This document shows positions 36,345-63,385 of a stretch of 64,000 bases of DNA, in pieces. Under the pieces are notes generated by a model, which was not told the DNA's origin, searched no databases, and worked only from the letters and a program-made list of their open reading frames with translations. The position numbers and the translations under genes were made by a program. How positions within the stretch are numbered: position 1 is the first letter of the stretch; each line of letters starts with the position of its first letter. The stretch comes from Candidatus Aegiribacteria sp. (lineage in GTDB: Bacteria; Fermentibacterota; Fermentibacteria; Fermentibacterales; JCC-6), in assembly GCA_021108005.1 (NCBI GenBank), contig JAIORS010000154.1, forward strand, positions 7,643 to 71,642, in the 5' to 3' direction.

Positions 36345-37661
36345 TTAGAGTATATAATTACCATCTTCTCGACGATCAGCAAGGTCAAGCAAAATCTTCG
36401 AAGCAATTGCACCCGTAATCTTCACATTTCCCTGGACAAGATCGGGTGCCCCAAATAATTGTTCATCCAGTAGATAACTTAGTACCGGCCTTAGTCTCCT
36501 TGCCCCTATATCTTCGGTTTCATCGTTAAGGTAATTGGCGACTCTGGCGACTTCCAATGCAGCTTTTCGATTCAGTTTGAGTTCAACGCCGTCCGCCTCA
36601 AGAAGTGCAGTATACTGTTTGAGAAGAGAATTTTCGGGTTCAGTCAATATACGAAACAGGTCCTTTTCCGAAAGTGGATCGAGTTCGACTCTCATTGGGA
36701 AACGGCCCTGCAACTCAGGTATAAGGTCAGAAGGGCTGGATCCATGAAAAGCTCCCGCGGCAATGAAAAGTATATGGTCAGTATTCACTGGTCCGTAGCG
36801 TGTTGGTACGGTACATCCTTCCACAATCGGAAGCAGATCCCTCTGAACCCCCATTCTGGAAACCTCAGGTCCTTTGCTTTCACTTGTTCCGATGATTTTG
36901 TCGATCTCATCTATGAAGATTATCCCTTCCTCCTGGGCGAGTTTGAGACCCCTCGAGATATGATCGCTTCCTTCCAGAAGCCTTCTCATTTCTTCTTCGT
37001 AAAGACGTTCCCTGGCTTCAGATACGGTCAGCTTCTTCCTTTTTCGTCTGCTGCCAACCATTTTCTGCATGAGTTTCTTCAGGTTCTCGCCTGCTGGATT
37101 ATCGAAGCCTCCCCCGCCTGGTATCAGTGGCATTATCTCCATCTGCGCGATGCTCTCCGGAAGTATCAGTTCGATCTCGTTATCGTCGAGAAGACCCTTA
37201 TCAAGCATCCGGATAATTTCACTGTTTGATATGGAATCGAATCCGGTTTTTTTAAGTGTTTCAGCCAGTTTACTGCTTACAACGTCTCTTACCTGCTCCT
37301 CACGTTCTTTTGCAGCTTTTTCAGCCTCGATGTTCACTGCCTGACGGACAAGGGATCTGACCATTGACTCAACATCCCTGCCGACATAACCGGTTTCAGT
37401 ATACTTTGAAGCTTCGACTTTTACGAAAGGGGCTCCTGTCATATTGGCAAGCCTTCTGGCAATCTCGGTTTTACCTATGCCTGTAGGTCCCATCATTATA
37501 AGATTACTTGGATATATTTCGGACTTGATCTCCTCAGCTGCTTCCCTTCTTCTGAAGCGGTTGCGAAGGGCTATAGCTACAGAACGTTTTGCGCTATCCT
37601 GGCCTATGACATGACGATCAAGCCATTGAACGATCTGTGCCGGGGTAAGATCTCTTTTCAT
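36345..37661 (-). CDS. hslU: ATP-dependent protease ATPase subunit HslU
   Basis: IGQDSAKRSVAIALRNR, GPTGIGKTEIARR, KVEASKY, IDEIDK, VQRDLLP, ELQGRFP, IGARRL; ATG 37661 (TGATG overlap with hslV). Confidence 0.97.
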   Translation of the reverse strand: MKRDLTPAQIVQWLDRHVIGQDSAKRSVAIALRNRFRRREAAEEIKSEIYPSNLIMMGPTGIGKTEIARRLANMTGAPFVKVEASKYTETGYVGRDVESMVRSLVRQAVNIEAEKAAKEREEQVRDVVSSKLAETLKKTGFDSISNSEIIRMLDKGLLDDNEIELILPESIAQMEIMPLIPGGGGFDNPAGENLKKLMQKMVGSRRKRKKLTVSEARERLYEEEMRRLLEGSDHISRGLKLAQEEGIIFIDEIDKIIGTSESKGPEVSRMGVQRDLLPIVEGCTVPTRYGPVNTDHILFIAAGAFHGSSPSDLIPELQGRFPMRVELDPLSEKDLFRILTEPENSLLKQYTALLEADGVELKLNRKAALEVARVANYLNDETEDIGARRLRPVLSYLLDEQLFGAPDLVQGNVKITGAIASKILLDLADRREDGNYIL

Positions 37662-38197
37662 CAGTGAAGCTCCTCGATCTGTATTTCTCCGCCTGTGTAT
37701 ATACATATCGATGAAGCTATTTTTAAACTCTCACGGGCTATTTTCGCCGGTCCCATTTTCGTATGTTCATCGAGTGCCCTTGCCGCTGCCATAGCGTAAG
37801 ACTGACCGGAACCAACCGAAACAATTCCGTCCTCAGCCTCAACGATTTCTCCCGAACCTCCTATGAGCAAGGCATGCTTACTGTCAACGGCTGCTATAAG
37901 AGCCTGGAGTTGTCTGAGGTATTTATCGGTTCTCCATTCCCGAGCCAGTTCCACTGCAGCCCTGGGAAGATTACCTCTTGCTGCTTCGAGTTTCTCTTCA
38001 AGTCTTTCAACAAGGGCAAACGCATCCGCTCCCGTTCCGGAAAAACCCACAAGTACGGTATTGGAGTACAGCTTCCTTATTTTTTTTGCCGTACTCTTGA
38101 TTACCGTTTCACCAAGGGTGACCTGACCGTCGGCAGCCATCGCGGCTTTGCCGTTACGGACTATCCCGAGTACGGTTGTTGCGTGAATATCTTCGAT
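37661..38197 (-). CDS. hslV: ATP-dependent protease peptidase subunit HslV (inferred ATC start)
   Basis: HA|TTVLG...AADGQVTLG, GFSGTGADA, WRTDKYLR, GSGQSYA, CIYT. The N-terminal Thr lies upstream of the first ATG; see findings. Confidence 0.92.
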   Translation of the reverse strand: MEDIHATTVLGIVRNGKAAMAADGQVTLGETVIKSTAKKIRKLYSNTVLVGFSGTGADAFALVERLEEKLEAARGNLPRAAVELAREWRTDKYLRQLQALIAAVDSKHALLIGGSGEIVEAEDGIVSVGSGQSYAMAAARALDEHTKMGPAKIARESLKIASSICIYTGGEIQIEELH

Positions 38198-41100
38198 TAT
38201 GATCCTCCATCAAGAGTATTGACCCAGGAATAACTTCCTGAGCCTCCGCCCGGTTCAGGCAAGGATTCAGCATACGATGCGGGATCCTGAAGAATTTCGG
38301 ACAGGGTTAAATCAGAAACATGGCTGCTTCTACAGAGGGCTGCATACATTAAATAGGGTTTCCCGCCCCTGGCAGCCATCCAGGCCAGTGCTTCCGGAGA
38401 TACCCTTCTGCCTTCAATAACGAACCATTCTGACCACCGCCTGGCCTCTTCAGGACTTTCTTCAAGCAGCATCAAGGCAAATCCCTCTACTGTCTCGGCT
38501 TCAGCTTCATCCTCAATATAGTCGGACAGGACAAGTCCCGCGGATATGGATGACATGATGCGTCCCCTTGAAGCCAGTTCAACCATAGAGTCAATAATAT
38601 CTCCGGCGTTCGCGTCTTCTGTAAGGCTAATTCTATTTGAGCTGTCCTGACTGATGAATTCAAAGAATATTGACAGGCCGCTGTCACGGGGATTAACTCT
38701 TGCTCCCGTCCTTGAATTATCAAGAATATCCTCGAGCGTACTCCGTGCGAGCGCAGCCAGTTCAACCGATTGAAGGTTATGTTGCACATCCATCCCGTCG
38801 AGAATACTCCAGGCTCCAATATAATCGGAGAACATCAGTGATACTTCAATCTTCATCCATGCAAATGGTATTGAACCCTCATCGGAGGTTGTCCATTCAA
38901 ATGACACTGAACTGTCATCAATAATGTTAAAAAGATTTCTGTACTCCATCTCCTGCCGGTATCCGAAAGTGTTCTCCGAACCTGTTGCCATGTTTAAAAT
39001 CGAATAGGACAGCTGCAGGAGTTCCCGATTGCCAAGTCTCTCGGCAGCTTCCATCGCTTCGGCAGCAAGAATCTCTAGAGTATCCGCGGCAGCAGCAGGT
39101 CCGTGAAGACCATCGATCAGCTTACCAACTATCATGGCTCTGGACGGCAATATCTCAGCCCAGTCGTCGGGAAGTGTTAGTCCAGGGCCATCTGTACACT
39201 GTCCGGCTCTCCGGCTGCCATGTAATGATAGGCGAGCCTGTGATATGCTGAAACGTAGTTCTTCAGAAGCTGCACGGCCTGATCACATTTGAATATGGAT
39301 GGATCTTCGATTCCGTTGAACTGATACTCGTTCATAAGCTGCCAGCCCCGAACTCCGTTGACGGCATCCACGACGGGATGATCTGTTATGCTGAATGCTA
39401 TACCTTCCATTTCCTGGTAATGCTCAAGAAATCTCCGGCTTTCGGGGGCAACCGTGCCAGCGAAGTAAATTTCGCGACCATGAACAGGCCTGTTCTTGAT
39501 CATGTTCAAAAGAACGAGATCCTGCATTGCAAGCGCGCCCTGATTGGATAAACCCTCTGTGGGCATAGCCATGGCCATAGAGCTGCTGGTTATTGCCCAG
39601 GGCCACACCTGGTTAAATGTTACCCGGAGAATCGCCCCGTCAATTGGTGATGATTCAGCCTGTCCGTTTTCATTCAAATGGAAATAGTGCGGACCCCATA
39701 TGTAAACAGGATGCAGCGAATCAACAAGTCCATAGTCATCGTAATCAAGAAGGAGAGAATCCTTTTCTACAAGCTGCTGCACGTACCAGTTCGTGTTCAT
39801 CAGGCTAAGGTTGCTTACAATGACATCTCTGCGTACTCCCAGAACTCCCTGCGCGAACCACAGGGGGAATGTGTCGTTGTCACCGTTGGTAATAAGAACA
39901 GCGTTCTGAGGACAGCTTTCCAGAAGATTTATACCGTAATCCCGCGGTCGCACCTGTATGAGTTCACACCAATTGATAAAGCGGGTATCAGCAATGTTAC
40001 CCAGGCCAGTCTCGATTTGTTCGTAAGGAAATCTTTGAAAACGGAAACCAGCCCTATTCCCGAGAATATAGCAAAAAGGGCGAAGGAAGCTCCAAAGAAA
40101 TAGTCCCTCTCCCTTACTTCTCCTAAAAGCGTAGCCTCTGTACCGGTTTTAAAATTGAGAATGAAGAAAATGAAGAGGATTGATGACATCAGAAATAGTA
40201 AACCCAGATATAGAAGCAGTTTAGGTCTATTCAAGCCCAGAACCACCAGTCCGTAAATCGCTCCGAAAATCAATAATATCCTTACGACCATGGATGCGGC
40301 TGAACCAGCCGTATCACCCAGATAACGATCCCATCCGTCATTCACCCTTCCGGACTGCCAGGATAGATATTTCATATAAAGCTTCATCTGATCGATGAAC
40401 GGACCCTTCCGCTCAAGGATCGATGTTCTGCCGTACTGCTCTCGAGTGAAAGCCTTCTCAAAATCGGTCCAGTGGGAACTGTCACGTTCGTTTATTTCCG
40501 GATTCTGCACAGCGCGAAGGGGCATATAAAGATGAATACTGAAAGCCAGAACTACCAGGCCGACTATTGTAAGAACGAACCAGGATCGTTTCCATATATC
40601 CGTCTTCTTCCTGAAGGCGTAAATAAGGAACATCAAAAGTATAGGGGGGCCGGTAACGAACGGTACGCTGCCATGGTTTCCGACAGCAAGGATTATCAGA
40701 TAGGAAATTAGAAGCAGATACCTCGCTTCTCCCCAGCCGCCATGATCCTTTTTTCCCTTTTCATGCTTTTTCTCTGCGTATTTCTCTATCCAGCAGTCGA
40801 ATGACCACATTATGATAAATGTCAGCAGTAACGCCGTGGCGTAGGTTTCGGTGGCATTGCTGTTACGCCAGATGGTGTAGCTGAAAGCGGCAATAAATCC
40901 GGAAAGAACAGCCATTGGCCTGTACCAGTCCGGCGCGAAATCCATTCTGTTTCCCCATCGCTGAACGAGGCGGACAAGAAGGCCGATGGTGGCTGCTCCG
41001 GCCAATGCGCACAAAGTATTAACCCTTGCCGCCACTGCCGGGATAAAGGAAAACACGATAGTACTAAATCTTCCAAGGAGAACAAACAGGGGAACACCGG

Positions 41101-41272
41101 GCGGGTGTGGAACACCCGCAGTCCATGAACAGGTCACGTATTCTCCGCTGTCCCAGAAACTTACACTGGGAGCGAGAGTTAACAGGTATGCTAAAAGGGC
41201 AATCAGTCCTACTATTAAGGCAATTGACCTGTCAATTCTGATTCTTCTTATTTCTTCAATACTATTAGTCAA
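38197..41272 (-). pseudogene. DUF2723 (TMEM260-like) GT-C membrane protein split by two frameshifts into three ORFs (39929-41272, 39177-39953, 38197-39150)
   Basis: WDSGEY, GVPHPPG, ATETYA in the first part; GDNDTFPLW, NLSLMNTNWY in the second; the third frame stays open upstream across the second ORF's stop; TTG start overlaps the xerC stop. Confidence 0.75.
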
Positions 41273-42180
41273 TCTTCCCCCCTGGGATGTGCTTTCCTGT
41301 ATGCCTTCCTCAATCGTTCCATTGTCAGGTGCGTGTAAACCTGGGTTGTAGAAAGAGTAGCGTGTCCCAGCATATCCTGAACCGCTCTCAGGTCGGCTCC
41401 ATTATCAAGCAGATGGGTTGCAAAGCTGTGCCGGAAAGTGTGAGGCGTTGCTCCCGCTGCCCGGGCAGCTTTTTTCACTCCGCATGCAACAATACGCTGG
41501 ATATCTCTGGGGTCAAGCTTTCTTCCATGGATGCTGATAAATACGGTTCCCGGATCAGCGGTAGAATCCACTGCAAGCTCACTCCTGCTGTCAATCCATA
41601 ATTTCAGTGATCTGCAGGTTAATTCTGGAAGAGGTACTATTCTTTCTCTCTTTCCCTTACCCATGATTTTTATCTCTCTTGCCTGCAGGTTCAGTCCGGA
41701 AAGAAGTACCGAAACGGATTCTGAAGCTCTTAAACCTGCTCCGTAAAGAAGATCAACTACAGCTCGGTTGCGTCTGCCAAGAACCGATGATACATCGAAA
41801 CTGTCGATTACCTGCTGCACCTCCCGGACGCTGAGAAACCCGGGTAATCTGGTTGCTGTTTTAGGCATTGCAATCAGTTTTGCCGGATTCGAGGGTAATC
41901 TTTCAGTTTCAAGCATCCAGTTCCCGAAGGTCCGCAAAGATGAAACCTCCCTTGCCAGAGATTTCGGATCAAGTTCTCTTGACGCTTCGTGTCGAAGAAA
42001 TCCCCTCAACCCGTTCAGTGTAAAGCCATCAAGAATACTCTCGGATTTCTGCCAGTTATTGAATCTGTAGAGATCGGCTCTGTATGCCTTTATTGTGTTC
42101 TCGGAAAATCTCCGGCCAAAAAGCAGATCCCTGCAGAAATTTTCTATCAGTTCACAATTTTCTTTCTGCAACTGGGGCAC
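41269..42180 (-). CDS. xerC: Tyrosine recombinase XerC
   Basis: LYGAGLRASE, GKGKRER, TPHTFRHSFATHLL, LGHATLSTTQVYT; topA-xerC-hslVU context. Confidence 0.93.
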   Translation of the reverse strand: MPQLQKENCELIENFCRDLLFGRRFSENTIKAYRADLYRFNNWQKSESILDGFTLNGLRGFLRHEASRELDPKSLAREVSSLRTFGNWMLETERLPSNPAKLIAMPKTATRLPGFLSVREVQQVIDSFDVSSVLGRRNRAVVDLLYGAGLRASESVSVLLSGLNLQAREIKIMGKGKRERIVPLPELTCRSLKLWIDSRSELAVDSTADPGTVFISIHGRKLDPRDIQRIVACGVKKAARAAGATPHTFRHSFATHLLDNGADLRAVQDMLGHATLSTTQVYTHLTMERLRKAYRKAHPRGED

Positions 42181-44351
42181 CAGATACCTTTCTTTTTTTC
42201 GACCAGTATTGGAAAGCCACACCTGGGACAGGTTCTATCGACCGGCCTGTTCCATACTGCGTATTTGCATTCAGGGAACCTGTTGCAGGCATAAAAAAGC
42301 CTTCCCTTTCCGGATTTCTTCTCGACCAGTTCTCCACTGCACGTTTCCTCGGGACACATCACACCAGTTGGCACAGGTTCTGTATGTTTGCATTCAGGAT
42401 GGTTCTTGCAGCTTAGATATCTTCCAAACCTGCCATTTTTAAGTAACAGGTTACCGCCACATATCGGGCACTTCCTGCCTGAGAATTCTGTTGAATTCTC
42501 TTTTTCAAGAGGGCTTGAGTACCTGCACTTGGGAAAATCGGTGCAGGCTTTGAATTTTCCATATCTTCCCCACCGAATGACAAGAGGAGAACCGCATTCA
42601 GGACATGTCTCCCCCGTATCCTGCTGCAGTTCATTCCTGTACTGATCGGTACTTTGCAGCGCCTTTTTCAGAGAGGATTCAAGTGGAAGGTTCAACTGTT
42701 CCAGAACATTCATATAGGATTCAGTGCCATTTGCAACCGAATCGAGGAGGTCTTCCATTTTTGCCGTAAAATCAACCTTGAAGATATGTGGAAACATTTT
42801 TGTAAGTATTCGCACAGTGGTTGTTCCGAGTTCTGTGGGCCTGAGGGTCTTTCCGTCCTTCTCTACATACTTTCTGTTTTTTAGTGTCTTTATTGTACTA
42901 ACGTATGTAGAAGGTCTTCCAATACCTGCTTTTTTCATTTCAGCTACAAGCCTCGCCTCGGAGAATCTGGGAGGCGGTGCTGTGAACTTCTGTTCTTTGC
43001 TGAATGATTGCAGGGAAACATTACCCCTCTTCACTTCGGGAAGCCTGTTCTTTGTTTTAATGAATGCAGGATCGATTATCGAAAAACCCTGTTCAAGCAG
43101 TATTTCCCCGGTAGATTTGAATTCAAGGCCTGCTCCCGATACGCTTACAGTCGTATTCATTATTTCAGCATCTATAAGCTGAGTAGCCGCGAAGCGATTC
43201 CAGATGAGTCTGTAAAGGGAAAGCTCAGGTGTACTGAGAACAGATGTGAGTTCATCCGGTGTAAGCCGAATGTCGACAGGCCTGATGGCTTCATGGGCAT
43301 CCTGTGAGCCCTTTGAACCTCTGTACCTTCTGGTTTTAGGGTACAGCAAACCCGAACCGTATCGTTCAGTCAGATATTTCCTGCAATCCTTCAGACTATC
43401 CGGACTCATTCTTACGGAATCCGTACGCATGTAAGTAATAAGCCCTTTTCTGGTGCTTTTACCGAAGGATATGCCTTCGTACAATTTCTGGGCAATTGAC
43501 ATTGTTCTTGAAGGAGAGAACGACAATCTGTTGGAGGCTGTCTGCTGAAGTGTGCTTGTAATGAAGGGAGGAGGAGGATTTACAGCCTTCTTTCTGGAAT
43601 CTACTTTCGAGATTTCCCAAATGATATCTGGTTCATTAATTCTTTCAATGATATTCTCCGCTTCTTCTTCGCATTCCGGAAACTTTCCCGGTTTTCCCGA
43701 TGTTTTTCCATCAATTTTATGAAGATTCGCGGTAAATGAATTCTTTCCCTGAGTAAAACGTGCGTCAATCAGCCAGTATTCAACAGGCAGAAAACTGCCG
43801 ATGGTATCCTCGCGCTCCTGAATCATCCTGAGAGCTACAGATTGCACTCTTCCAGCGCTTTTGCCCTTCCCCATTATCTTTTGGAGCCACGAAGATATTT
43901 TGTAGCCCACAAGCCGATCCATAACCCTTCTTGCCTGCTGAGCGTCAACAAGCTGCATATCAATTGAACTGGGGTTTTTAATAGATTTAAGAACTGTGTC
44001 TTTCGTGATCGCGTTGAATCTCAGCCTGCTGAATACGACACCCTCTCGTTCCAGTATCTGCGAAAGGTGCCAGCATATTGCCTCTCCCTCTCTGTCAGGA
44101 TCGGCTGCAAGATAGATTCTGGAGACCTCGCTGGCTTTCTTTTTAAGCATGGTTACAACTTTCCTTTTATCCGGAAGTATTGTATAGGAAGGTTTAAAAC
44201 CTTTGCTTTCGTCAACTCCAAGGTAGTTCCTTGGAAGATCTCTTACGTGACCGTACGAAGCGATCACCTCGTAACTGTCACCAAGATAGCTGCGAAGACT
44301 GCTGGCCTTCGCAGGTGATTCGATAATTACAAGGCTTTTTTTCTTACTCAT
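42147..44351 (-). CDS. topA: DNA topoisomerase I (type IA) with C-terminal Zn ribbons
   Basis: IIESPAKA, DPDREGE, SAGRVQS, LITYMRTDS, GIGRPST, several CxxC ribbons; ATG 44351. Confidence 0.97.
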   Translation of the reverse strand: MSKKKSLVIIESPAKASSLRSYLGDSYEVIASYGHVRDLPRNYLGVDESKGFKPSYTILPDKRKVVTMLKKKASEVSRIYLAADPDREGEAICWHLSQILEREGVVFSRLRFNAITKDTVLKSIKNPSSIDMQLVDAQQARRVMDRLVGYKISSWLQKIMGKGKSAGRVQSVALRMIQEREDTIGSFLPVEYWLIDARFTQGKNSFTANLHKIDGKTSGKPGKFPECEEEAENIIERINEPDIIWEISKVDSRKKAVNPPPPFITSTLQQTASNRLSFSPSRTMSIAQKLYEGISFGKSTRKGLITYMRTDSVRMSPDSLKDCRKYLTERYGSGLLYPKTRRYRGSKGSQDAHEAIRPVDIRLTPDELTSVLSTPELSLYRLIWNRFAATQLIDAEIMNTTVSVSGAGLEFKSTGEILLEQGFSIIDPAFIKTKNRLPEVKRGNVSLQSFSKEQKFTAPPPRFSEARLVAEMKKAGIGRPSTYVSTIKTLKNRKYVEKDGKTLRPTELGTTTVRILTKMFPHIFKVDFTAKMEDLLDSVANGTESYMNVLEQLNLPLESSLKKALQSTDQYRNELQQDTGETCPECGSPLVIRWGRYGKFKACTDFPKCRYSSPLEKENSTEFSGRKCPICGGNLLLKNGRFGRYLSCKNHPECKHTEPVPTGVMCPEETCSGELVEKKSGKGRLFYACNRFPECKYAVWNRPVDRTCPRCGFPILVEKKKGIWCPSCRKKIVN

Positions 44352-44419
44352 ATATCCTTCATGATTATAAACTCTAATATGTGATATTGTTTTGGAGAAT
44401 GTTCTCAAAAAGTGATTGA

Positions 44420-45937: not shown

Positions 45938-46529
45938 TAAGTGCAAGAGAGAATTGTCTATGCAATCTGTGCATTACAATTCGGCTGGCTTTTCTCAGAG
46001 TTTCAAAAACACCTGTACCTTCGGTAGCGACTGATTCAATACATGGGACCCTATCAAGACCAAGACGTTTCTGTATCACAGCCGTTGGAAAAATATCCGG
46101 AAGGTCTCTTTTGTTGGTTTGGAGTACAAGGCTGAACCCTTTTCGTTTCGTATTCCTCAGGTTATCCTTCAGATCGCGCAGGCTTGCTATGTTAGCGTCC
46201 ATTCTGGCTCTCTGTGAATCGGCAACGAAAATGATGCCGTCAACGCCCTGAAGAATCAACTGACGGCTGTCAGTATACATTGCCTGTCCTGGAACACTGT
46301 AGAGGTGAAGCCTTACCTTGAAGCCGTAGATCGTACCTGTATTAATTGGAAGGAAATCGAAAAAGAGTGTACGTTCGTTACCTGTTGCGAGAGAAATGAG
46401 CTTTCCCCTGTCACTGGAAGGTATCTGGCTGTGAATATATTTGACGTTGGTTGTCTTCCCGGAAAGCCCAGGACCGGCATATACAAGTTTGCAATCGATT
46501 TCTCTTGAACTGTAGCTAACTGTCGCCAT
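45921..46529 (-). CDS. mglA: MglA-family small GTPase (paralog 2)
   Basis: SYSSREIDCKLVYAGPGLSGKTTN, ERTLFFDF, YSVPGQ, IFVADSQ, NKRDLP, ATEGTGVFET. Confidence 0.9.
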   Translation of the reverse strand: MATVSYSSREIDCKLVYAGPGLSGKTTNVKYIHSQIPSSDRGKLISLATGNERTLFFDFLPINTGTIYGFKVRLHLYSVPGQAMYTDSRQLILQGVDGIIFVADSQRARMDANIASLRDLKDNLRNTKRKGFSLVLQTNKRDLPDIFPTAVIQKRLGLDRVPCIESVATEGTGVFETLRKASRIVMHRLHRQFSLALNEKRG

Positions 46530-46722
46530 TCGTATTTTCCCCGTTTCCTGAATCTTCTTCGTCGTTATCCATGTCTGATATATCTTCTTTCATTCCTTTT
46601 CTGAACATATGCAGCGCCTGCCCCACTGACCTGGCGAGGTCCGGAATTCTTTTAGCTCCGAAAAGGAGTAGAAGAACAACAACAATCAGTATAATTTCAC
46701 CAGTGCCCGGACGAAACATCAT
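46516..46722 (-). CDS. tatA: Twin-arginine translocase TatA/E subunit
   Basis: GTGEIILIVVVLLLLFGAKRIPDLARSVG..FRKG. Confidence 0.92.
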   Translation of the reverse strand: MMFRPGTGEIILIVVVLLLLFGAKRIPDLARSVGQALHMFRKGMKEDISDMDNDEEDSGNGENTNGDS

Positions 46723-46748
46723 AATATCTCCTGCCTGCAGATCCTGTA

Positions 46749-47021: not shown

Positions 47022-47042
47022 AATTCCTCCAGTAATTGTAAT

Positions 47043-52488: not shown

Positions 52489-52493
52489 CTGTT

Positions 52494-52760: not shown

Positions 52761-52776
52761 TAAAGTCCCCCAGCTT

Positions 52777-53748: not shown

Positions 53749-53762
53749 CGGGATAATCTCCG

Positions 53763-54311: not shown

Positions 54312-54508
54312 TCAGAACTCCCTTCGGTTAATTGTCTATTTCTCAATGGAAACGGTGAACATGGATAAAAAATACTGTTCCACATATGCGATTGAGCATA
54401 TCCTGAACAGTTAACGCTTACAAGTGTATTTATCACAGAACAATAATATTGTTCCTTTAGTGCGTGGTCAACACCATTAGAAAACCAATCCTTCCGCAGC
54501 TTTCTCTT

Positions 54509-55894
54509 TTATCGATTATTCCTGCCGATGAACTCCTCAACTTCAGGAATACCGCCCTGGAATATCAGATAGCCGTTATGTGGTTCTCTTTCTGTAATCT
54601 CACCCGCTATCGGTGTGAGCATTATCTTTTTAACCTCTTCCCTGTCATGGCTCTGACCAAGTGCCCAGCATAGTTTTACATATGCAACTTCCGGAAGCAT
54701 ATTGGAAGCTGGAATTACACCAAGATCCATGATATCCCGCCCGGTATCGTATACGAACATCTGTACGTATCCCCACAGGGTCTGAACTGTCATGTAAACG
54801 TGTACTCCCTGATCGCAGGCTTTCTTAAGAACAGGATAGAGAGGCTTGTTCACATGTCCAAGTCCCGTTCCCGCGATTATGATGCCATTGTAAGCGTTAT
54901 CAATAAGCGATTCAATTATATCCGGCTTCATATCAGGATAGTAATACACTATAGAAACACTTGAATCGTAATCCGTATTGATCTTCACATTACGGTCGGT
55001 GCGTCTTTTCCTGTAATCGCTCTTCAGGGGGGTTATTTGTCCCTTTTCAACCATAGCCAGAGGAATGTCTCCGATTGTTCGGAATGTGGACCTGTAGGAG
55101 GAATGCATCTTTCTGACCCTTGTTCCTCTGTGCAGAAGTCCATACTGATCACTTGTAGGGCCGAACATACAGACCATAACCTCAGCAATGTCGCTTTCAG
55201 CGGCTGCATAGGTAGCGTTCATCAGATTTAATGCCGCATCGCTTGAAGGGCGGTCACTGGATCGCTGGGATCCGACCATTACTATAGGAACAGGTGTATC
55301 CTGAACCATGAATGAGAGTACAGCAGCTGTATGATGCATCGTATCGGTTCCATGGCCGATGACTATTCCATCTACACCATCGGCTATTGCCCTGCCTATC
55401 GCTTCCGCCGTTCCTTTCCACTGTTCAGGTCCCATGTTCTCACTGAATACTCCGTAGAGTTTTTCTGTTTTTAGGTTGCAGATATCGGCCAGTTCGGGTA
55501 CCGATCCATAAAGCTCACCGGGGGAAAATGCGGGAATGACAGCGCCGGTTCTGTAATCAAGCCTTGAGGCAATGGTACCCCCGGTGCCGAAAAGCCTCAC
55601 ATTCGGTTTTAATGAATCGTAAGGGAATTCCTTTTCAGGTATCTTGTAATGTGCTTCGTTCCTTCCCAGCTCAGTGATGGATTCAATAGTTTCAACATCA
55701 AGGCCGACATTGTATCCGTTATGGATTTTTAACACTATATGCACATCGTCAGCGGTTTCCGACCGGGGAAGAATTACTCCCTTGAACCCCCCCCTGGTTG
55801 ATTCTATACTTACATCGGACCATACGCCGACACTGAATTTTTTCAGACATTCCAGGCTTTTACCCCGGTATCCTTTGTATAGATCGGAAGACAG
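54509..55894 (-). CDS. gatD: Glu-tRNA(Gln) amidotransferase subunit D (archaeal type), inferred CTG start
   Basis: GatD N-terminal domain (GVILPRSETADDVHIVLKIHNGYNVG) and asparaginase-like core TGGTIASR, HGTDTM, GSQRSSDRPSSDA, HRGTRVRKMHS. Confidence 0.93.
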   Translation of the reverse strand: MSSDLYKGYRGKSLECLKKFSVGVWSDVSIESTRGGFKGVILPRSETADDVHIVLKIHNGYNVGLDVETIESITELGRNEAHYKIPEKEFPYDSLKPNVRLFGTGGTIASRLDYRTGAVIPAFSPGELYGSVPELADICNLKTEKLYGVFSENMGPEQWKGTAEAIGRAIADGVDGIVIGHGTDTMHHTAAVLSFMVQDTPVPIVMVGSQRSSDRPSSDAALNLMNATYAAAESDIAEVMVCMFGPTSDQYGLLHRGTRVRKMHSSYRSTFRTIGDIPLAMVEKGQITPLKSDYRKRRTDRNVKINTDYDSSVSIVYYYPDMKPDIIESLIDNAYNGIIIAGTGLGHVNKPLYPVLKKACDQGVHVYMTVQTLWGYVQMFVYDTGRDIMDLGVIPASNMLPEVAYVKLCWALGQSHDREEVKKIMLTPIAGEITEREPHNGYLIFQGGIPEVEEFIGRNNR

Positions 55895-55900
55895 CTTGGA

Positions 55901-57829
55901 TCACCTCCTATGTATCTGCTGGGACGTAGAATCAGTAACCTCGTGAAGGATTACATTTCGCACTGCTTCCAGTACTTCCCTTCCGCCCGGAATCCCGTTA
56001 AATTTGTGCCTCACACCCCCGATGATGAATAGTTCCATCAGATCGGTATCGAACGGATCAAGTCCTTCCATCAGGTTGAGGGCAGCATTTTCCATTTCTT
56101 TTCTGCCTGGTATCGTTAAACCGCTTACCATCGATTCGATTCCCGCGTTTTCGTGTCCGCGGGATTTTTCCAGAATATAGGATGCCGCTTCAACGGGAAG
56201 ATCGCGGTTGCCGGTTGCAGATAGTACTTCTATAAGTGCTTCATCAGTGATATCACCTGAGCTGCCGTTTTTCTTCAGATGGTTCAACGTGCTAAGAAAA
56301 TAATGCATTAGAACGCGTGGAGAGTACGGGCATTTCTCCACAGCTTCATCGTACGCGAATCTCATGTGAGAGATACTCATTTGACGGGCAGATTCTGCAG
56401 GCACCCCTGCGGAAATGTATCTCTCCATCCGTTCCCAGGGTCTTTCGGGAAGATCAGATTCTATGCGTTCAATCATTTTCTCGGTTATTGCTATGGGAGG
56501 CAGGTCGGTATCTGGATACATCCTGTTAGGTCCGGGTAGAATTCTTTCGAATCCGTTTGTTCCGTCGGAATATGATTGTCTGGTTTCACTGCAGACGCCA
56601 TCGATGGCTTCCCTTGCTCTTGTTGCGATTTCACTCGTCGCCATATCGAGGTCTTCGGCAGATCCCCATACAACAACGACAGCATCAGCAGTCTCAGCAC
56701 CGGTTCTCTTTTTTATTGTCTGCCATTCGCCAACAGTGAAACTGTATCCTTCCTCTCCATCGTGTACGATATTGGGGAGGGTATCAAGACATGCAATCAC
56801 ACGGACTCTGTCGGAGATCTCCCCGGCGAAAGTGCAACCTGGCTGTGTAACCGTAGAAAGAAGCCCTTCGTATCCCCGCAGTAAAACAGCTCGAAGCTCA
56901 AATCCCTTCTCAATCGCGTCCGCGACCGGGCTGAAGGCAGTTCCGGAGAGTTCATCCGTGATATCAAAGCATTCCGAACTGAAAGTCGAATCTGTAATGC
57001 CCCTGCTGGAAAGTTCTTTCTTGATCTCCAGAAGAGACACCTGGCGGAATGCCTCAATGTGAACGAGCAGTGGTATCGCTGGAATCCTTGAAACGCCTTT
57101 TATCTCAACACGGCATCCACCCTTTACAGAAACGTTCACATCCTGCCTTGCGGCGCCAATTCCACGTCTTACTTTCCCGGAGGCTCTTACAAGATCGCTG
57201 AGTATCCGGGCAACCTCAGCCACATCGCGTGGAGTAGTCATTTCGGGAGCCGTTACAGTCTCAATAAGCGGTATTCCAAGCCTGTCCGTCAGGTATACGC
57301 GTTCATGGCCTTTATCGCTTACTTCCCGGCAGGCATCTTCTTCCAGTCCAAGCTGAATAATATTGATACGCCTGTCTTTAAATGGGATCCAACCGTCTAC
57401 TCCCAGTATTGTCGTTCTTTGAAATCCCGCGGGTATTGATCCATCGAGGTACTGCTTCCTCTGAATATGTATCTCACTAACGAGTTTGCAGTTAAGAAGC
57501 ATCGTTATTTCAAGCGCGATATCGAGAGCCTGAGGATTCAGTTCGAAGGGCGGGGTATCATCAATTTCGTAAGTACAAATGGTATCTTTGTTTATCCGGT
57601 ATGTAATGTTCTTTTTTGTTTTGAATTCCATAAGAGCTGTGCCGTCGTATTCACCTAGTTCTGAAAGAGTAGGCCTCATATGACGTATTATCTTTGCGTC
57701 GAATTCGTCAGAGTAAGGAAGCACCGGGCAGCGACAGAATAATTTTTTCCTGGTATCTATCTGCTGGTGTATCTCAAGTCCGCTGCGCAGCCCGATAGCT
57801 TCGTAATCGGAGGCTGTCGTCTCCTCCAT
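55901..57829 (-). CDS. gatE: Glu-tRNA(Gln) amidotransferase subunit E (archaeal type)
   Basis: GLEIHQQ, KLFCRCP, RPTLSELGEYD, RKQYLDGSIPAGFQRT, GLEEDACR, DRLGIPLIE, RRGIGAARQDVNVS, AspRS-like insertion, RILPGPNRMYPDTDLP. Confidence 0.95.
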   Translation of the reverse strand: MEETTASDYEAIGLRSGLEIHQQIDTRKKLFCRCPVLPYSDEFDAKIIRHMRPTLSELGEYDGTALMEFKTKKNITYRINKDTICTYEIDDTPPFELNPQALDIALEITMLLNCKLVSEIHIQRKQYLDGSIPAGFQRTTILGVDGWIPFKDRRINIIQLGLEEDACREVSDKGHERVYLTDRLGIPLIETVTAPEMTTPRDVAEVARILSDLVRASGKVRRGIGAARQDVNVSVKGGCRVEIKGVSRIPAIPLLVHIEAFRQVSLLEIKKELSSRGITDSTFSSECFDITDELSGTAFSPVADAIEKGFELRAVLLRGYEGLLSTVTQPGCTFAGEISDRVRVIACLDTLPNIVHDGEEGYSFTVGEWQTIKKRTGAETADAVVVVWGSAEDLDMATSEIATRAREAIDGVCSETRQSYSDGTNGFERILPGPNRMYPDTDLPPIAITEKMIERIESDLPERPWERMERYISAGVPAESARQMSISHMRFAYDEAVEKCPYSPRVLMHYFLSTLNHLKKNGSSGDITDEALIEVLSATGNRDLPVEAASYILEKSRGHENAGIESMVSGLTIPGRKEMENAALNLMEGLDPFDTDLMELFIIGGVRHKFNGIPGGREVLEAVRNVILHEVTDSTSQQIHRR

Positions 57830-57967
57830 TCTTTTTATCACCTTTAGATAATTCTCCTTTCTCTTCGCATGTTCATACTCATTTCAGATAATTCATTGAG
57901 TATGAAGTGAGATCAGATTCCGCAAGAACAGAACTTGATTATATTTCATGGTATTCCACAAAACAAC

Positions 57968-57993
57968 GCCCGGCACCTTTAAAGGCACCTTTA
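57968..57993. repeat. Second occurrence of the GCCCGGCACCT motif with a tandem GGCACCTTTAAA duplication
   Basis: GCCCGGCACCTTTAAAGGCACCTTTA directly after the stop of the response regulator gene; 11-bp identity with the ends of the 4354-4537 element. Confidence 0.6.
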
Positions 57994-59262
57994 AATATCA
58001 AGGTCCTTCAGTCTTGAAAGCAGTGTCCTGTAGCTGATCCTTAAAATCTCAGCGGCCTTCTTCCTGTTGCCATTGGTATCTCTGAGAGCTTTTCTTATCA
58101 TCTCCCCTTCTCGAAGTTTCGCCGCCCTGGCCGATTCCTCCAGAAGTCCTTCCTCATTGACCGCTTCATCGATCTCCAGTATTTCAGTATCTATGATTTT
58201 ATCATCAACGAGCGCTGCAGCTCTTAGTACGATACTTCTGAGCTGTCTTATGTTTCCCGGCCAACTGTACGCCTTCAGTTTGTTCATCGCATCCTCAGTA
58301 ACGGTTACTTCCCGGTAACCGGATTGTCTGAGAAAGTACTTTGTAAGATCAGCTATATCCTCCGACCTGTCCCGAAGAGGTGAAAGGGTAACAGGAAACT
58401 CCCCTATTCTGAAAAAGAGATCTTTTCTGAATCTTCCTTCTTCTGTTTCCAGTTTGAGTTCTCTGTTACTAGCTGAGATAACCCTTGCGTTGGTATGGAA
58501 TACTTCCGTCCCTCCGACTCTTGTGTATTCCCTTTCCTGAAGTACTCTTAGAAGTTTTCCCTGCAGTGATGTATCAAGATCTCCAACCTCATCGAGAAAG
58601 ATGGTTCCTCCCTGAGCATACTCGAATCTGCCCTTGCGTGTTCTGTCCGCACCGGTGTAGGCACCTTTTTCAGCGCCGAAAAGTTCACTCTCAAGAAGGT
58701 CGGGGGGTATAGCGGCGCAGTTGACAGGTATAAAAGGCCCATCGGAACATACACTGTCCAGATGGATCATTCTTGCTAGAAGTTCCTTTCCTGTACCGCT
58801 CTCTCCCAGTACAAGGATGTTCAAATCGGTTCCGGCACCCTTGGATGCCCTCTTTATTGTGGAAAGAAGGGATGGCGAGGAACCTATTATATCGGTACCT
58901 GCCGAATGCGAATACCTTCTCAAAAGCGCGAGAAGTTCATCCAGATCGAAGGGTTTTGTTATAAAATCCCTTGCGCCTTCTTTCATTGCCTCAACCGCAA
59001 GATTCACCGTGCCGAAAGCCGTCATCAGAATAACAGGTGTCCAGTGGTTCAATTCCCTTGATTTTTTAAGAATATCCATCCCGTTGATGTTCCCTGGAAG
59101 ACATATATCACTCAGCAGAATATCAAAAGCGCCGGTCTCGAGCATCCTGACAGCATCGGTTCCGGAAGAAACCGCAGTCACTTCCCATCCATCTTCCGAA
59201 AGGGCTGTTGTAAGCATGTTTCGCATGGCTCGTTTGTCCTCGATAAGAAGAATCCTTTCGAT
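57991..59262 (-). CDS. Sigma54-dependent response regulator (REC-AAA+-Fis HTH), inferred ATC start
   Basis: (M)ERILLIED, LLSD, GESGTGKE, VNCAAIP, ESELFGAEKGAYTGA, FLDEVG, WPGNIRQL, C-terminal HTH. Confidence 0.93.
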   Translation of the reverse strand: MERILLIEDKRAMRNMLTTALSEDGWEVTAVSSGTDAVRMLETGAFDILLSDICLPGNINGMDILKKSRELNHWTPVILMTAFGTVNLAVEAMKEGARDFITKPFDLDELLALLRRYSHSAGTDIIGSSPSLLSTIKRASKGAGTDLNILVLGESGTGKELLARMIHLDSVCSDGPFIPVNCAAIPPDLLESELFGAEKGAYTGADRTRKGRFEYAQGGTIFLDEVGDLDTSLQGKLLRVLQEREYTRVGGTEVFHTNARVISASNRELKLETEEGRFRKDLFFRIGEFPVTLSPLRDRSEDIADLTKYFLRQSGYREVTVTEDAMNKLKAYSWPGNIRQLRSIVLRAAALVDDKIIDTEILEIDEAVNEEGLLEESARAAKLREGEMIRKALRDTNGNRKKAAEILRISYRTLLSRLKDLDI

Positions 59263-59263
59263 G

Positions 59264-60949
59264 TCAATAACCTCCCTGGTTTTCCTGAATAGGAATCAGA
59301 ATGGTGAACAAAGCTCCGCTCTCGTCTCTGTTCTCACCGCTCAGTTCGCCTCCCATAGACCTGATTATTCTCCTGCTGACGGAAAGACCCAGCCCCATAT
59401 TGCCACTGCTTCTGTTCTTTGTTGTCCTGAAAGGCCTGAATGCTTCATCACTGTCAATGGATAAACCGGGGCCGGAATCTGCAACCGATATTAAAAGATT
59501 TGTGCCTTTCCTGTTTATTGAGATACGCACTGAAGACGATGAATCAGCCTCAACGGCGTTTCTTACGATATTGTAAATACAGGATGAAAGGAGTTTCCTG
59601 TCAGCGTTTATGAAAAACTCGTCAATAGAAGTACTTACCGAACATCTATCTTCGTTCAGCCTGCAGGCTTCTTCGCATATTGAAACCACATCATCCCTCC
59701 CAAGATTAGCTTTAACCGGCTCCGGTGATCTGGCGAAACTCCCGAAGGAAATGATAAGACCCTGAGCCGATTCGACCTCCCTTTTTACTTCGGAGATGAT
59801 ATTCTGTGTTCTTTCATCGGAATGCCCCCTGGTCAGTAAATCAACGTAACCTGATAGTGCACATAGCGTATTTCCCATTTCATGCGATATACCAGCAGAT
59901 GCAGCTCCTATATCTGCCATTGCCGTCTGATCGGCTATTTTCCTCTCCAGTTCACTGATTCTGGTGACATCGGTAACAAGTACCGCAATCTCGTTCACCC
60001 CCGAGCGTGAAATAACTACACTGTACATTCTATCCTGTTTAACAACGTCGTCTCTTATCTGAAATTCCGAGGAGGTATTTCCCGATTTATCCTGTGAAAG
60101 AAGAATGGGTTTGAGCTTGCGTCCAGCTTCAGTTTTCTCCCATGGGAACTCTTTATCGATATCGCCATCGCTGAGTTCGAACATCTCCTTCGACTGTCTG
60201 TTAAATAGTGAAAGATTTCCGTTTCCGTCAATTGAGAATACTGCTGATCCGAGTACAGACAGCATGGCAGCAGATCGTTTTTCCACTCTATCGGCTCTTT
60301 TCTCAGCCCTCTTTCTTAGATCGTTCAATTGTTGATCCCGATCGTGAAGCAATTCTACAAGACGATGAAAGGATGCACCGGCAGCTTCCGGATCTATTCC
60401 GCCGCCGCTGCTGAAACGATCGGCTTCAAACAGTATCTCTCTCAAAGGAGAAATAACAGTCCTGGCAAGATATCTCGGAGTAAAGAAAGCCAGAACCGCG
60501 AGAGCGGCTGTAAGAGCAGCAAGGCCGATAATGAGTGACCTGTATATAGCTGAAATAGACGATCGACATGGCCTGACTCCAACAATGTGATCAGTTTCAG
60601 CACACCCTGCGAAATACCAGCCCTTAGTCTCTCCTGGTACGGGTATATCTTCAGATGATATCCCGGATCCGGCTATCATGTTCCCCGAATAATCAAGCAT
60701 CACTGCAGCTTCAAGGCTTCCGCTCCGTACGAGTGGGGCTGTGATAGTATCGAATTGATTTGAAGTATCTGATGCTTCAATCGTTCTGCTTATTGCATAC
60801 GCGGTTATCGTGGCCATATGCCCTGATTCAGCTTCAATGTCTTTGTCTACAAGAAATACTATTAAAAAGGAAACCACAGTAGCGGCCGCGGCTGCTCCTA
60901 TTGCCAGCCCTGTCAGAAGCTCAACACCTATTATGAATCTTTTTCGCAA
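59264..60949 (-). CDS. Membrane sensor histidine kinase (TM-periplasmic-TM-PAS-HisKA-HATPase)
   Basis: SHEMGN H-box, NIVRNA, DSGPG, GLGLS; TTG start with AAGGAG. Confidence 0.92.
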   Translation of the reverse strand: MRKRFIIGVELLTGLAIGAAAAATVVSFLIVFLVDKDIEAESGHMATITAYAISRTIEASDTSNQFDTITAPLVRSGSLEAAVMLDYSGNMIAGSGISSEDIPVPGETKGWYFAGCAETDHIVGVRPCRSSISAIYRSLIIGLAALTAALAVLAFFTPRYLARTVISPLREILFEADRFSSGGGIDPEAAGASFHRLVELLHDRDQQLNDLRKRAEKRADRVEKRSAAMLSVLGSAVFSIDGNGNLSLFNRQSKEMFELSDGDIDKEFPWEKTEAGRKLKPILLSQDKSGNTSSEFQIRDDVVKQDRMYSVVISRSGVNEIAVLVTDVTRISELERKIADQTAMADIGAASAGISHEMGNTLCALSGYVDLLTRGHSDERTQNIISEVKREVESAQGLIISFGSFARSPEPVKANLGRDDVVSICEEACRLNEDRCSVSTSIDEFFINADRKLLSSCIYNIVRNAVEADSSSSVRISINRKGTNLLISVADSGPGLSIDSDEAFRPFRTTKNRSSGNMGLGLSVSRRIIRSMGGELSGENRDESGALFTILIPIQENQGGY

Positions 60950-61016
60950 AGGATCTCCTTAGTACTGCCAGTCATAAAAACCATTGCCTGCCCTCAATCG
61001 TACTGGATAATCTTTA

Positions 61017-62261
61017 TTATATACTGTTTTTCGTAGCAGCGCATTGTGACAGCCGTCTGTAAAACCTGTCTGTAACTCTATCCCAGGTCCATTTTTCAAG
61101 TACGCTCTTCCTGCCCTTCTCACCCATTGTAAAACCGAGTTCCGGATTATCAAGCAGTATATCGATTCTATCTGAAAGAGTGGCAGTATCACCCCATGAA
61201 ACTAGGAATCCGTTAATGCCATCACTAATTATGTCCGGCATTGCTCCTGACCAGCATCCTATAACCGGTTTCCCTGTCATCCATGCTTCCAGCAATACGA
61301 TTCCAAAACAATCAAGTCTTGATGGAAGAAGTACTATGTCCGCTGCGGAGATGAGATCAATTCTCCCCTTCATACTTATATAATCAGTTAAGATAAGCCT
61401 GCTTCCGAACTCCTCAGCAAGATTCTCCCGCGAATCGATGTATTCCTCCGAATCGGGAAGAACCGGCCCCGCAAGAACAAGTGTAAAATTCCATCCTTTT
61501 TTCAGTAGATTCCCGCATGCTTCAATTATCTGTGCGGTTCCTCTATCTAGTGAGTGAGCGGTAAGGCTCAGGATTACAGGTCCTGAAACACCAAGCCTCT
61601 TCAGACCTCTTTCCCGGTTGCTCTCACTAAATTCCCCCGGATCGATTCCGCTGCCTGATACGTGAACCCTTTCATCCGGAACGCCCATCCCGGTGTAAAG
61701 CTCCCTCTCAAAATTACTCTGGGCAACGACAAAGCTGCTGTTGTTAATGACCTTCTTCAAGCATCCGTCGAAATAGTGCATTGGCTTTATTCTTCTGTAT
61801 TTCTCGCCAACACTCGCATGGGGTACTGAAACGAGTCCTGTTTGATTTCTCCGACTGTAGCGCCAACCTTCGTAAAGCATGAACGGCATCGCGTTGGCAT
61901 GCACAAAATCGAATTCCCTATCAACCGAAAGCCAGCGGTGCAATGATGGAATGAATGGATTGGGATAGTAGTATCTGTCAGTCCCGCATCCGGTCAGCCG
62001 CCTCAACGTTCCACGGAGGATATTCTGAAAAGGAGGATGTATAACGGGAAAGCGTTTAATCCTGACACCGTTGTACAGGTCATCTCTTCTTAGAATACTG
62101 GATCCCGCTCTGGAAACGAACCATGACATGTCCCATGCGTCAGTAGTGTAAATAGCGGATTTGTGTCCCCACCTTTCCCCTGCAAGGGCATGTTCGAGAA
62201 CGTACCGCTCAGCACCTCCATGAAAAGGCCAGGATCTGTGAACAAGGTGGAGAATCTTCAT
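61017..62261 (-). CDS. GT4 glycosyltransferase
   Basis: GGAERYV, GSGID, LPSRLDCFGIVLLEAW, GINGFLV. Confidence 0.9.
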   Translation of the reverse strand: MKILHLVHRSWPFHGGAERYVLEHALAGERWGHKSAIYTTDAWDMSWFVSRAGSSILRRDDLYNGVRIKRFPVIHPPFQNILRGTLRRLTGCGTDRYYYPNPFIPSLHRWLSVDREFDFVHANAMPFMLYEGWRYSRRNQTGLVSVPHASVGEKYRRIKPMHYFDGCLKKVINNSSFVVAQSNFERELYTGMGVPDERVHVSGSGIDPGEFSESNRERGLKRLGVSGPVILSLTAHSLDRGTAQIIEACGNLLKKGWNFTLVLAGPVLPDSEEYIDSRENLAEEFGSRLILTDYISMKGRIDLISAADIVLLPSRLDCFGIVLLEAWMTGKPVIGCWSGAMPDIISDGINGFLVSWGDTATLSDRIDILLDNPELGFTMGEKGRKSVLEKWTWDRVTDRFYRRLSQCAATKNSI

Positions 62262-63385
62262 TGTACCGATATCCTTCTATAAAACTCGCATATGCCCCTT
62301 GCTATATCCTGCCAGTTCTTCCTTCTGGCTGAAGAGGACATTCTACGGAGTTCTTCCACTCTGGCAGGCTCCTCAAGCATTGTTATTTCCCTTATCCAGC
62401 CTTCATGATCGTTGGGTTCGAGGAGAATTCCGTTATTTCCCACGGTATCCGGAAGAGCGGTAGCGTTGCTTGAAATAACCGGCGTGCCGCAGCCTAATGC
62501 TTCAAGTACAGGTAACCCGAGTCCCTCGAACCTGCTGGGGCAAAGCAGTGCCCTTGCTCCACGATACAATTCCACTATAGCAGTGTCCGAAACGTTCTTC
62601 ATCATTCGAACACCCGGCCCCTGTTTAACTTCCACATCTCCCCATCCTCCGGCTCCAACCAGAATGAGGGGTATTTCAACACCCTTTTCCCTGGATTTTC
62701 CGTATACATCAAGGAGAAAGGGAATGTTTTTTCGTGGAACGAAGCTGCTCACATGAAGTAAATAGTTTCCCTGCTGTAGATTAAGTTCATTCAGTATCTC
62801 TTTTGAAGACGGCCCCGGAGAGAATTTCTCATCCGCGGCGCCTCCGGCGCAGAAAATCCTATCCTGCGGTAACCCGAAATAATCCCTTACTCTCTGTCCT
62901 GTCCAGTTTGATATTGCCATAACTGAAGAGCCAGCCTTTATCAGCCGGGCTTCCTTTTTAGCGAAGTCAACGGTTTCCTCAGTATGCCATTGGGGATTTT
63001 CGAGCGCGGAAAGATCATACATTGTTATAACAGATTTGCAACCGTGAGGATATTCGGGCTGAACACCACTGTGGTGATATACGGCGTTTTCGCCTGAATA
63101 TGTGTACAATCTTGAACTCCTGGATCTCTCTTCCCATTTTTCACGGATGGGAATCCTCCGTAAGAAGGGTATTCTCAGGTAGAAAGGAGTTTTCAGTATC
63201 TGGCAATCAACCTCTGGCCCGGGGACCCCCGGATGCGCTGCGGGAACATCAATCGGAATAAAATCGATCTCAAACTCGGATGCGACTTCTGAAATGGCCT
63301 TTACTACGGAAAGAAGGTATCTTGACACACCACCCAGCGCATGTGGAACAACACTGAGATCAAAATACACGCGGAGCTCGCCTAT
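62258..63385 (-). CDS. GT4 glycosyltransferase (inferred ATA start; GTG at 63370 is the alternative)
   Basis: GGVSRY, TMYDL, PRKN, PSRFEGLGLPVLEA. Confidence 0.88.
   Translation of the reverse strand: MGELRVYFDLSVVPHALGGVSRYLLSVVKAISEVASEFEIDFIPIDVPAAHPGVPGPEVDCQILKTPFYLRIPFLRRIPIREKWEERSRSSRLYTYSGENAVYHHSGVQPEYPHGCKSVITMYDLSALENPQWHTEETVDFAKKEARLIKAGSSVMAISNWTGQRVRDYFGLPQDRIFCAGGAADEKFSPGPSSKEILNELNLQQGNYLLHVSSFVPRKNIPFLLDVYGKSREKGVEIPLILVGAGGWGDVEVKQGPGVRMMKNVSDTAIVELYRGARALLCPSRFEGLGLPVLEALGCGTPVISSNATALPDTVGNNGILLEPNDHEGWIREITMLEEPARVEELRRMSSSARRKNWQDIARGICEFYRRISVQ

Follow-up and report, generated by a model that had tools for sequence, protein, structure and literature searches.

The stretch of DNA analysed here (hereafter the window) comprises 64,000 nucleotides (nt) of contig JAIORS010000154.1 from Candidatus Aegiribacteria sp. 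and carries about 57 densely packed genes, most of them on the minus strand. Its sequence recurs in marine-sediment and cold-seep metagenomes, and the host is an uncultured Candidatus Fermentibacteria/Aegiribacteria bacterium. We surveyed these 64 kb plus syntenic relatives (designated below by locus numbers such as L010); the long open frames of the whole window were translated from stop to stop and then aligned to full-length family profiles. In 3 of the ~57 genes, homology extends upstream of every in-frame ATG, GTG or TTG, and the only starts left are near-cognate codons: CTG in gatD (Glu-tRNA(Gln) amidotransferase subunit D), ATC in the gene of a sigma-54-dependent response regulator (NtrC family), and ATA or ATC in hslV (HslV protease subunit). 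The ribosome-binding motif across the window is GGAGG, and it lies 9 nt before the start of gatD, 8 nt before that of the response regulator gene and 3 or 6 nt before that of hslV. A near-cognate codon in frame 5-10 nt past a GGAGG is, alone, not rare by chance; the evidential weight comes instead from the lack of any standard start upstream of essential residues. All positions given below for these three genes, and for a glycosyltransferase gene discussed with them, are on the minus strand.

The gatD gene (54509-55894, 461 codons) starts at CTG 55894-55892. Its frame is open from 55900, the earliest standard start is GTG 55744 (codon 53), and GatD profiles align from residues 29-39, i.e. upstream of this GTG. 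CTG 55894, 9 nt past AGGAGG, is the sole near-cognate codon in the interval that separates the in-frame stop from the conserved YKGY motif. The junction with gatE (55901-55909) consists of AGGAGG (55909-55904), directly followed by the gatE stop TGA (55903-55901), 6 nt and then the CTG. For comparison, a GatD scan over a set with a single genome for each GTDB species yielded at least 578 confirmed stretches; 80 of these (L010-L089), with best segments 75-90% identical and all from bacterial genomes, were compared. Among the matches listed, the CTG is kept in the window and in eight species-representative genomes (L010-L014, L016, L017 and L019). The next relatives have GTG (L015, L018) or TTG (L020, L082) in the same column, and the more distant genomes among the matches listed have a standard start at or beside it, which is ATG in most phyla. 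All the CTG-bearing genomes present GGAGG-TGA-TC plus four further bases before the CTG, and this motif is conserved as nucleotides while the terminal GatE residues vary (HRR, KGR, KR, RR, WR).

The 50 codons from the CTG to the first standard gatD start evolve with a ratio of nonsynonymous to synonymous substitution rates (dN/dS) of 0.02-0.2, at a synonymous divergence (dS) at or beyond saturation, and are therefore translated. Among the eight CTG genomes, only 2 of 153 fourfold degenerate sites are invariant and none of the 26 invariant-leucine columns keeps a single codon, while the CTG is found in 8/8. As silent sites and leucine codons drift around it, the CTG is constrained as a triplet and not as a leucine codon. 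Moreover, its first base is never A, G or T, each of which would give a stronger start, and this suggests selection for a weak start. gatD is thus our strongest case, in which the CUG and its ribosome-binding site are held by selection across the clade. As a separate observation, the gatE-gatD pair (54509-57883) is an archaeal-type GatDE amidotransferase operon within a bacterial genome; the GatD-bearing genomes among the 80 belong to Ignavibacteria, Aminicenantes, Bacteroidota, Calditrichia, Zixibacteria and others, and our literature search found no paper on archaeal-type GatDE in these bacteria.

The response regulator gene (57991-59262, 423 codons) starts at ATC 59262-59260. Its earliest ATG is at 59226 (residue 24) and the receiver domain starts earlier, at residue 13-15 of the open frame; the residues ahead of this ATG enclose the first strand and the ED acidic pair (ILLIED, acidic pocket). 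From the in-frame stop (59298-59296) to ILLIED, the frame contains no ATG, GTG or TTG. The junction with the upstream histidine kinase gene (59264-59276) is made of GGGAGG (59276-59271), the kinase stop TGA (59266-59264) and 1 nt, so that the ATC lies 8 nt after GGGAGG. The same codon, with a matching layout of ribosome-binding site and stop, is found in L010, L012, L102-L104 and L105/L106. This makes five lineages, three of which (the window, L102-L104 and L105) are without a standard alternative; the more distant L013 and L016 have an ATG two codons upstream.

The hslV gene (37661-38200) has two candidate starts, ATA 38200 (179 codons) and ATC 38197 (178 codons). Its frame is open from 38209 and its earliest ATG, GTG or TTG is ATG 38140 (residue 24). 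The HslV profile alignment begins at open-frame residue 7-11, with the catalytic Thr-Thr included; the catalytic threonine, which is profile position 1, aligns at residue 11 and hence upstream of ATG 38140. At the junction with the preceding DUF2723-like gene (38197-38208), GGAGG (38208-38204) is followed by ATC, ATA and ATC, and the upstream stop is TAA 38199-38197. The hslV relatives (87-96% protein identity) all read ...GGAGGATC ATG A..., an ATGA in which the start of hslV is superposed on the stop of the DUF2723-like gene before it. In the species of the window this junction reads ATAA: through a single G-to-A change, the ATG became ATA and the TGA became TAA. The original prediction had given the hslV start as ATC; the codon that matches the ATG of the relatives is ATA 38200, by a recent and species-specific change. 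This ATA, 3 nt past GGAGG, aligns with the ATG of the orthologues and is not conserved across species as a codon, and ATC 38197 is the next codon, better spaced at 6 nt. The gene itself is intact, with a dN/dS of 0.056 against L090 (dS 0.46). Its near-cognate start is recent and confined to one species, and may be tolerated rather than favoured.

Public start calls also conflict for the neighbouring hslU (36345-37706), with 453 amino acids (aa) from ATG 37706 against 438 aa from ATG 37661. The former has no ribosome-binding site and would overlap hslV by 46 nt; the latter, placed after GAGGAG and sharing 1 nt with the hslV stop, fits the ribosome-binding-site pattern.

A fourth gene had been predicted to need or favour a near-cognate start, namely that of a GT4 glycosyltransferase (62258-63385), which may begin at GTG 63370 (370 aa) or at ATA 63385 (375 aa) after GGAGG 63396-63392. 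The ATA sits 6 nt past this motif and the conserved GTG is five codons downstream; the duplex energy fits the ATA alone (-13.1 against -3.3 kcal/mol for the GTG). For the closest relative (P0121/L102, 93% identical), the gene call begins at the GTG column (MFFDLS); a start within one or two residues of this column is also seen in many homologues, and the NCBI record is the 370-aa GTG form. L102 conserves both ATA and GTG, and in L105 the gene is translated through the stretch from an upstream TTG. A scan of metagenome contigs with this glycosyltransferase returned distant matches only (23-32% identity); nearer relatives came from protein search and contig look-ups. The ribosome-binding site favours the ATA; homology does not call for it. 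Of the four genes initially put forward, hslV, gatD and the response regulator gene require a near-cognate start and the glycosyltransferase gene can do without one, since GTG 63370 is available; the GGAGG announced before each of the four codons is indeed present.

Stop-to-stop scans of the remaining window open reading frames (ORFs) revealed no further gene with homology upstream of all standard starts, and no gene requiring a near-cognate start lies in the first 37 kb. A fifth candidate, dusB, was rejected: its long open N-terminus is an overlap with a minus-strand 2H-phosphoesterase-like ORF, and ATG 5133 fits. Likewise, the open upstream stretches at 38197-41401 result from the splitting of one gene by two 19-nt deletions (see below), and the one at 8040-8675 from an ATGA overlap. 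In E. coli, about two near-cognate starts are confirmed among ~4,300 genes (10.1101/063800). By our own arithmetic, the binomial P for 3 of ~57 genes is ~3e-5 if the base rate is set at 1e-3. The pattern seen in hslV, gatD and the response regulator gene is real and beyond chance. Two of the three appear to be conserved features of the lineage, one of them clearly under selection, and the third (hslV) a recent change; they differ greatly in age and do not form a single uniform pattern.

The codons themselves are authentic. Nine loci from other assemblies (one ENA, one JGI and several Logan assemblies), which together represent at least five samples, match the window at 99.2-99.96% identity; all four codons and their ribosome-binding sites are unchanged in them, with scattered strain differences elsewhere. 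Contigs from four studies agree with the codons of the window; these include a ~2% divergent strain from another study that keeps the hslV junction. The comparisons with DNA runs were made on contigs, not on read depth. The idea that sequencing or assembly errors struck four ATG codons could be nourished by the artefact-like damage that the assembly of the window bears elsewhere (the two 19-nt deletions). It is refuted by the recurrence of the same codons across assemblies of five or more samples and several studies and by their conservation in other species, and we give it practically no weight; the earlier judgement that a real trait was likelier than independent errors was therefore sound.

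The three cases that require a near-cognate start are arranged alike: between co-directed neighbours, a strong ribosome-binding site precedes the upstream gene's stop, and the weak start lies -4 to +6 nt from this stop. The stop-to-start gaps are -4 or -1 nt for hslV, +6 nt for gatD and +1 nt for the response regulator gene. Duplex energies, computed against a 16S tail assumed to be standard and not read from the host, are -14.5 kcal/mol for the gatE-gatD junction (the strongest in the window), -12.1 kcal/mol for the kinase-regulator junction (only one of 48 standard starts is stronger) and -9.3 kcal/mol for hslV. Near-cognate starts thus range from -9.3 to -14.5 kcal/mol, which places their sites among the strongest of the window, against medians of -8.2 for TTG and -5.9 for ATG. 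The TTG sites are stronger than the ATG sites (P = 0.03), and near-cognate and standard starts differ (Mann-Whitney P = 0.007), in a test that is partly circular given that ribosome-binding-site spacing helped to pick the starts.

We propose that these genes undergo true near-cognate initiation (CUG in gatD, AUC in the response regulator gene, AUA or AUC in hslV) at coupled junctions with strong ribosome-binding sites, a reading to which we assign a probability of roughly 70%. Ribosomes finishing one gene are able to restart on a neighbour a few nt away (PMC6728339, PMC12548453), and in E. coli the efficiency of AUA, AUC, AUU and CUG as starts is about 0.1-3% that of AUG (10.1101/063800). In the proposed mechanism, the strong site would hold the terminating ribosome, or a newly recruited 30S subunit, over the junction, and this prolonged hold would let the initiator tRNA accept a codon with one mismatch. 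The weak codon would keep unaided initiation low, and the downstream output would be low, given the E. coli efficiencies, and tied to translation of the upstream gene; as a result, GatD output would follow GatE and that of the response regulator would follow its kinase. We infer both that formylmethionyl-tRNA initiates precisely at these codons and that they serve for coupling.

Several observations weigh against this proposal, beside the partial circularity of the duplex-energy test. In two of the lineages that carry the response regulator ATC, a standard codon is in frame upstream: L010 has a GTG three codons upstream that overlaps the ribosome-binding site, and L012 an ATG six codons upstream without a ribosome-binding site. 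In the neutral comparison for this gene, 25 of 151 fourfold sites and 5 of 20 isoleucine columns are likewise invariant, and the statistical support for conservation of the ATC looks weak. For hslV, ATA 38200 and ATC 38197 do not appear distinguishable. Within the window, the tendency of weak starts to fall at coupled junctions is not significant (13 of 18 non-ATG starts lie at most 10 nt from an upstream stop, against 21 of 37 ATG starts, P = 0.21), which may be simply because the window is dense with short junctions. No RNA runs containing the gatE-gatD junction were found. Finally, the gatE TGA is in frame with gatD, which leaves room for a fusion made by read-through.

Such a GatE-GatD fusion, with the in-frame TGA read through, would account for a layout in which this stop stands exactly two codons before the CTG in all CTG-bearing genomes. 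The in-frame arrangement is, nevertheless, a single shared ancestral state with a one-in-three chance, and the GGAGG is kept as nucleotides through differing GatE C-termini and is spaced for the CTG. The relatives with GTG (L015) and TTG (L020) have the gatE stop out of frame, TGA is an ordinary stop throughout the window, and this reading would leave unexplained the response regulator gene and hslV, each of which is preceded by a stop in another frame. We consider read-through very improbable, and a general recoding of TGA was rejected, as many intact genes of the window end in TGA. Gene decay, in which the loss of the start codon marks pseudogenes or genes becoming so, has a little more in its favour. 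The hslV change is recent, species-specific and consists of one G-to-A that also preserves the upstream stop, and HslUV is dispensable in many bacteria. Against it, purifying selection on the intact gatD and response regulator genes is strong across species and extends to the parts upstream of any standard start, and the intact hslV combines its low dN/dS with a codon that is fixed in strains ~2% apart. Decay is excluded for the first two genes and unlikely, if conceivable, for hslV; as an explanation of the whole it is improbable.

A broader alternative, which overlaps with our proposal, is that the start-codon check is generally relaxed in this lineage, through an altered initiation factor 3 (IF3) or an initiator tRNA without the three G:C pairs. 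The proportion of near-cognate starts in the window (3 of ~57 genes) would agree with this, as would TTG at ~20% of starts and the recurrence of near-cognates in the clade, at gatD, the response regulator gene and hslV but also at ptsI in L013 and at an ORF after a tRNA-Gly gene in L092. On the other hand, all the cases stand behind unusually strong ribosome-binding sites, which would be needless under a lax check, and none occurs in the first 37 kb. A tBLASTn search with E. coli IF3 gave no match in the window or the loci compared, tRNA scans of the loci of 11 relatives detected tRNA-Gly only and no initiator tRNA, and no 16S rRNA 3' end occurs in these sequences. We regard a relaxed check as unlikely to be the explanation, with more to be said for it than for decay or read-through.

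Near-cognate initiation at coupled junctions, as proposed above, may be extended to the whole phylum: Fermentibacterota would use CUG and AUH starts at a percent-level rate, selected at site-stop-start junctions to fix the ratios of neighbouring proteins. We hold this extension to be doubtful, slightly less so than a relaxed check. A less stringent start check (IF3 or initiator tRNA) might act as the enabler of such percent-level use. The notion in the original prediction that weak starts tune expression systematically is partly supported: the gatD CTG, selected and lineage-wide, fits it, and the three cases differ in age without forming a uniform pattern.

Known systems offer partial parallels. 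As in the AUU starts of infC and pcnB, the only two confirmed near-cognate starts in E. coli (10.1101/063800), a single-mismatch codon is here the only start of a conserved gene and, in the E. coli genes, keeps translation low. The infC AUU, however, belongs to an IF3 feedback loop and no such loop is evident here; moreover, the genes are different, the codons are CUG and AUC/AUA, the starts are placed right after an upstream stop and three cases occur within 26 kb. The GUC start of Streptomyces sigR (PMC5472188) is likewise a conserved non-standard start, which holds down the expression of a regulator; it differs in that its repression by IF3 was shown experimentally, whereas our cases are classical near-cognates. 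Termination-reinitiation coupling (PMC6728339, PMC10666635, PMC12548453) has in common with our junctions the co-directed genes, a stop and a start within a few nt and a ribosome-binding site that falls within the upstream gene; GatE and GatD, moreover, are subunits of one complex. The described pairs restart on ATG, GTG or TTG (ATGA, TGATG), whereas here the restart would be near-cognate, with a presumed dependence on the upstream gene. Belinky et al. 2017 reported that non-AUG starts accompany stronger or better-conserved ribosome-binding sites, and that switches between closely related genomes are extremely rare, at ~3e-5 (AUG to CUG) and ~1.6e-5 (AUG to AUU) per start (PMC5622118). The weak starts of the window likewise go with stronger sites, but these authors left CUG and AUU genes out of consideration because there were too few of them, while the CUG described here is held over a clade whose silent sites are saturated.

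To our knowledge, the confirmed non-standard bacterial start codons can be counted on one hand, and hslV, gatD and the response regulator gene form an unusually dense new set of a known but rare start type. Our literature search found no paper mentioning start-codon usage in this phylum. The expectation that standard gene callers would truncate such genes is borne out: Prodigal-type calls (ENA, Logan and JGI) shorten all three, to 159 aa for HslV, 411 aa for GatD and 411 aa for the response regulator. NCBI rescued two of the three; its protein records for the 82,196-nt contig of this genome contain a 461-aa GatD (CTG translated as Met), also recorded in several sister genomes, and a 178-aa HslV (ATC start), and the response regulator is present only as the 411-aa truncation. 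Truncation costs HslV its catalytic threonine, the response regulator part of its phosphorylation pocket and GatD 50 residues, and function predictions and protein-family alignments for this phylum inherit these errors. Should the percent-level rate be true, homology-blind annotation would truncate a few percent of the proteins in Fermentibacterota genomes. With three cases within 26 kb and a clade-wide gatD CUG, the locus is also a natural case in which to study what maintains a weak start and whether the coupling of subunits is enforced by it.

The standard starts of the window provide the background for these cases. The 48 that were confidently assigned comprise 35 ATG, 11 TTG and 2 GTG; TTG therefore makes up 11 of the ~51 assigned starts (~20%), far above GTG (2-3), a share which is high yet within the ordinary range. 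The TTG starts are those of a lipM-like gene (2697, plus strand) and, on the minus strand, nadB (10596), waaF (29703), the DUF2723 gene (41272), xerC (42171), orf508 (45919), orf90 (47021), a glycosyltransferase gene (49739), ptsI (52488), ptsH (52760) and the histidine kinase gene (60949). In codon-marked alignments with syntenic relatives, which took in waaF, orf90, orf508, ptsH, ptsI, the histidine kinase gene, a GT4 gene, the DUF2723-like gene and xerC, most of the TTG genes have a start codon in the same column. The relatives nearly always show TTG there; a few genomes have GTG instead, and for xerC the codon is ATG. The TTG starts of nadB and the lipM-like gene are based on homology and on the position of the ribosome-binding site. 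At least eight TTG starts had been predicted, against the 11 assigned here. Two of the labels attached to such genes, DUF3857 and DUF4321, were not reproduced by Pfam; the ORFs themselves are real and conserved.

Some of these starts deserve a closer description. On the minus strand, ptsH (TTG 52760) and ptsI (TTG 52488) have TTG or GTG in the same columns in relatives. In L013 (about 13403), the start column of ptsI contains CTG, against TTG in the sister genome L014 (about 5471) and GTG or TTG in the others. This CTG follows the same GGAGAGGAA-TGA-AAAA junction, and an in-frame ATG eight codons upstream means that a near-cognate start is not forced. For xerC (41269-42222), relatives have ATG where the window has TTG 42171, with GTG 42180 three codons upstream, and this TTG looks like another species-specific weakening of a start codon. 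Next to a tRNA-Gly gene (CCC, 32543-32618, minus strand), the ATG of the following ORF, which encodes a signal-peptide-like protein, directly adjoins the 3' end of the tRNA or overlaps it (...GCTCCA|TG TTT ATG...) without a ribosome-binding site, and public calls run a 230-aa ORF through the tRNA. The messenger of this ORF might become leaderless once the tRNA is processed. The window ATG is replaced by ATA then CTG in L092 and by ATA then TTG in L095.

The DUF2723/TMEM260-like gene upstream of hslV starts at TTG 41272-41270 (minus strand), in a TTGA overlap with the xerC stop, and the 1037-aa call in L007/L008 maps to 41272. Within this gene (minus strand, 38197-41401), the window is without two 19-nt pieces, AGATCGGAATCTTACTTCG and AGATCGGAATTGCTTTTCG, which are present in three other assemblies of the same species. 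The deletions fall after 39946 and 39179 and split the 1037-aa gene into three overlapping ORFs. Both pieces start with the Illumina adapter 9-mer AGATCGGAA, which suggests a trimming or assembly artefact; the intact plus-strand copies of this 9-mer at 8209, 12940 and 55881 are not explained in this way. A Logan contig of run X6 terminates at 38453 in true adapter sequence. Finally, the window encodes two paralogous small Ras/Arf-like GTPases of 193 and 202 aa (35728-36309 and 45921-46529), each ~51% identical to the orthologues of the other and each adjoining a large protein without family match (735 and ~500 aa).

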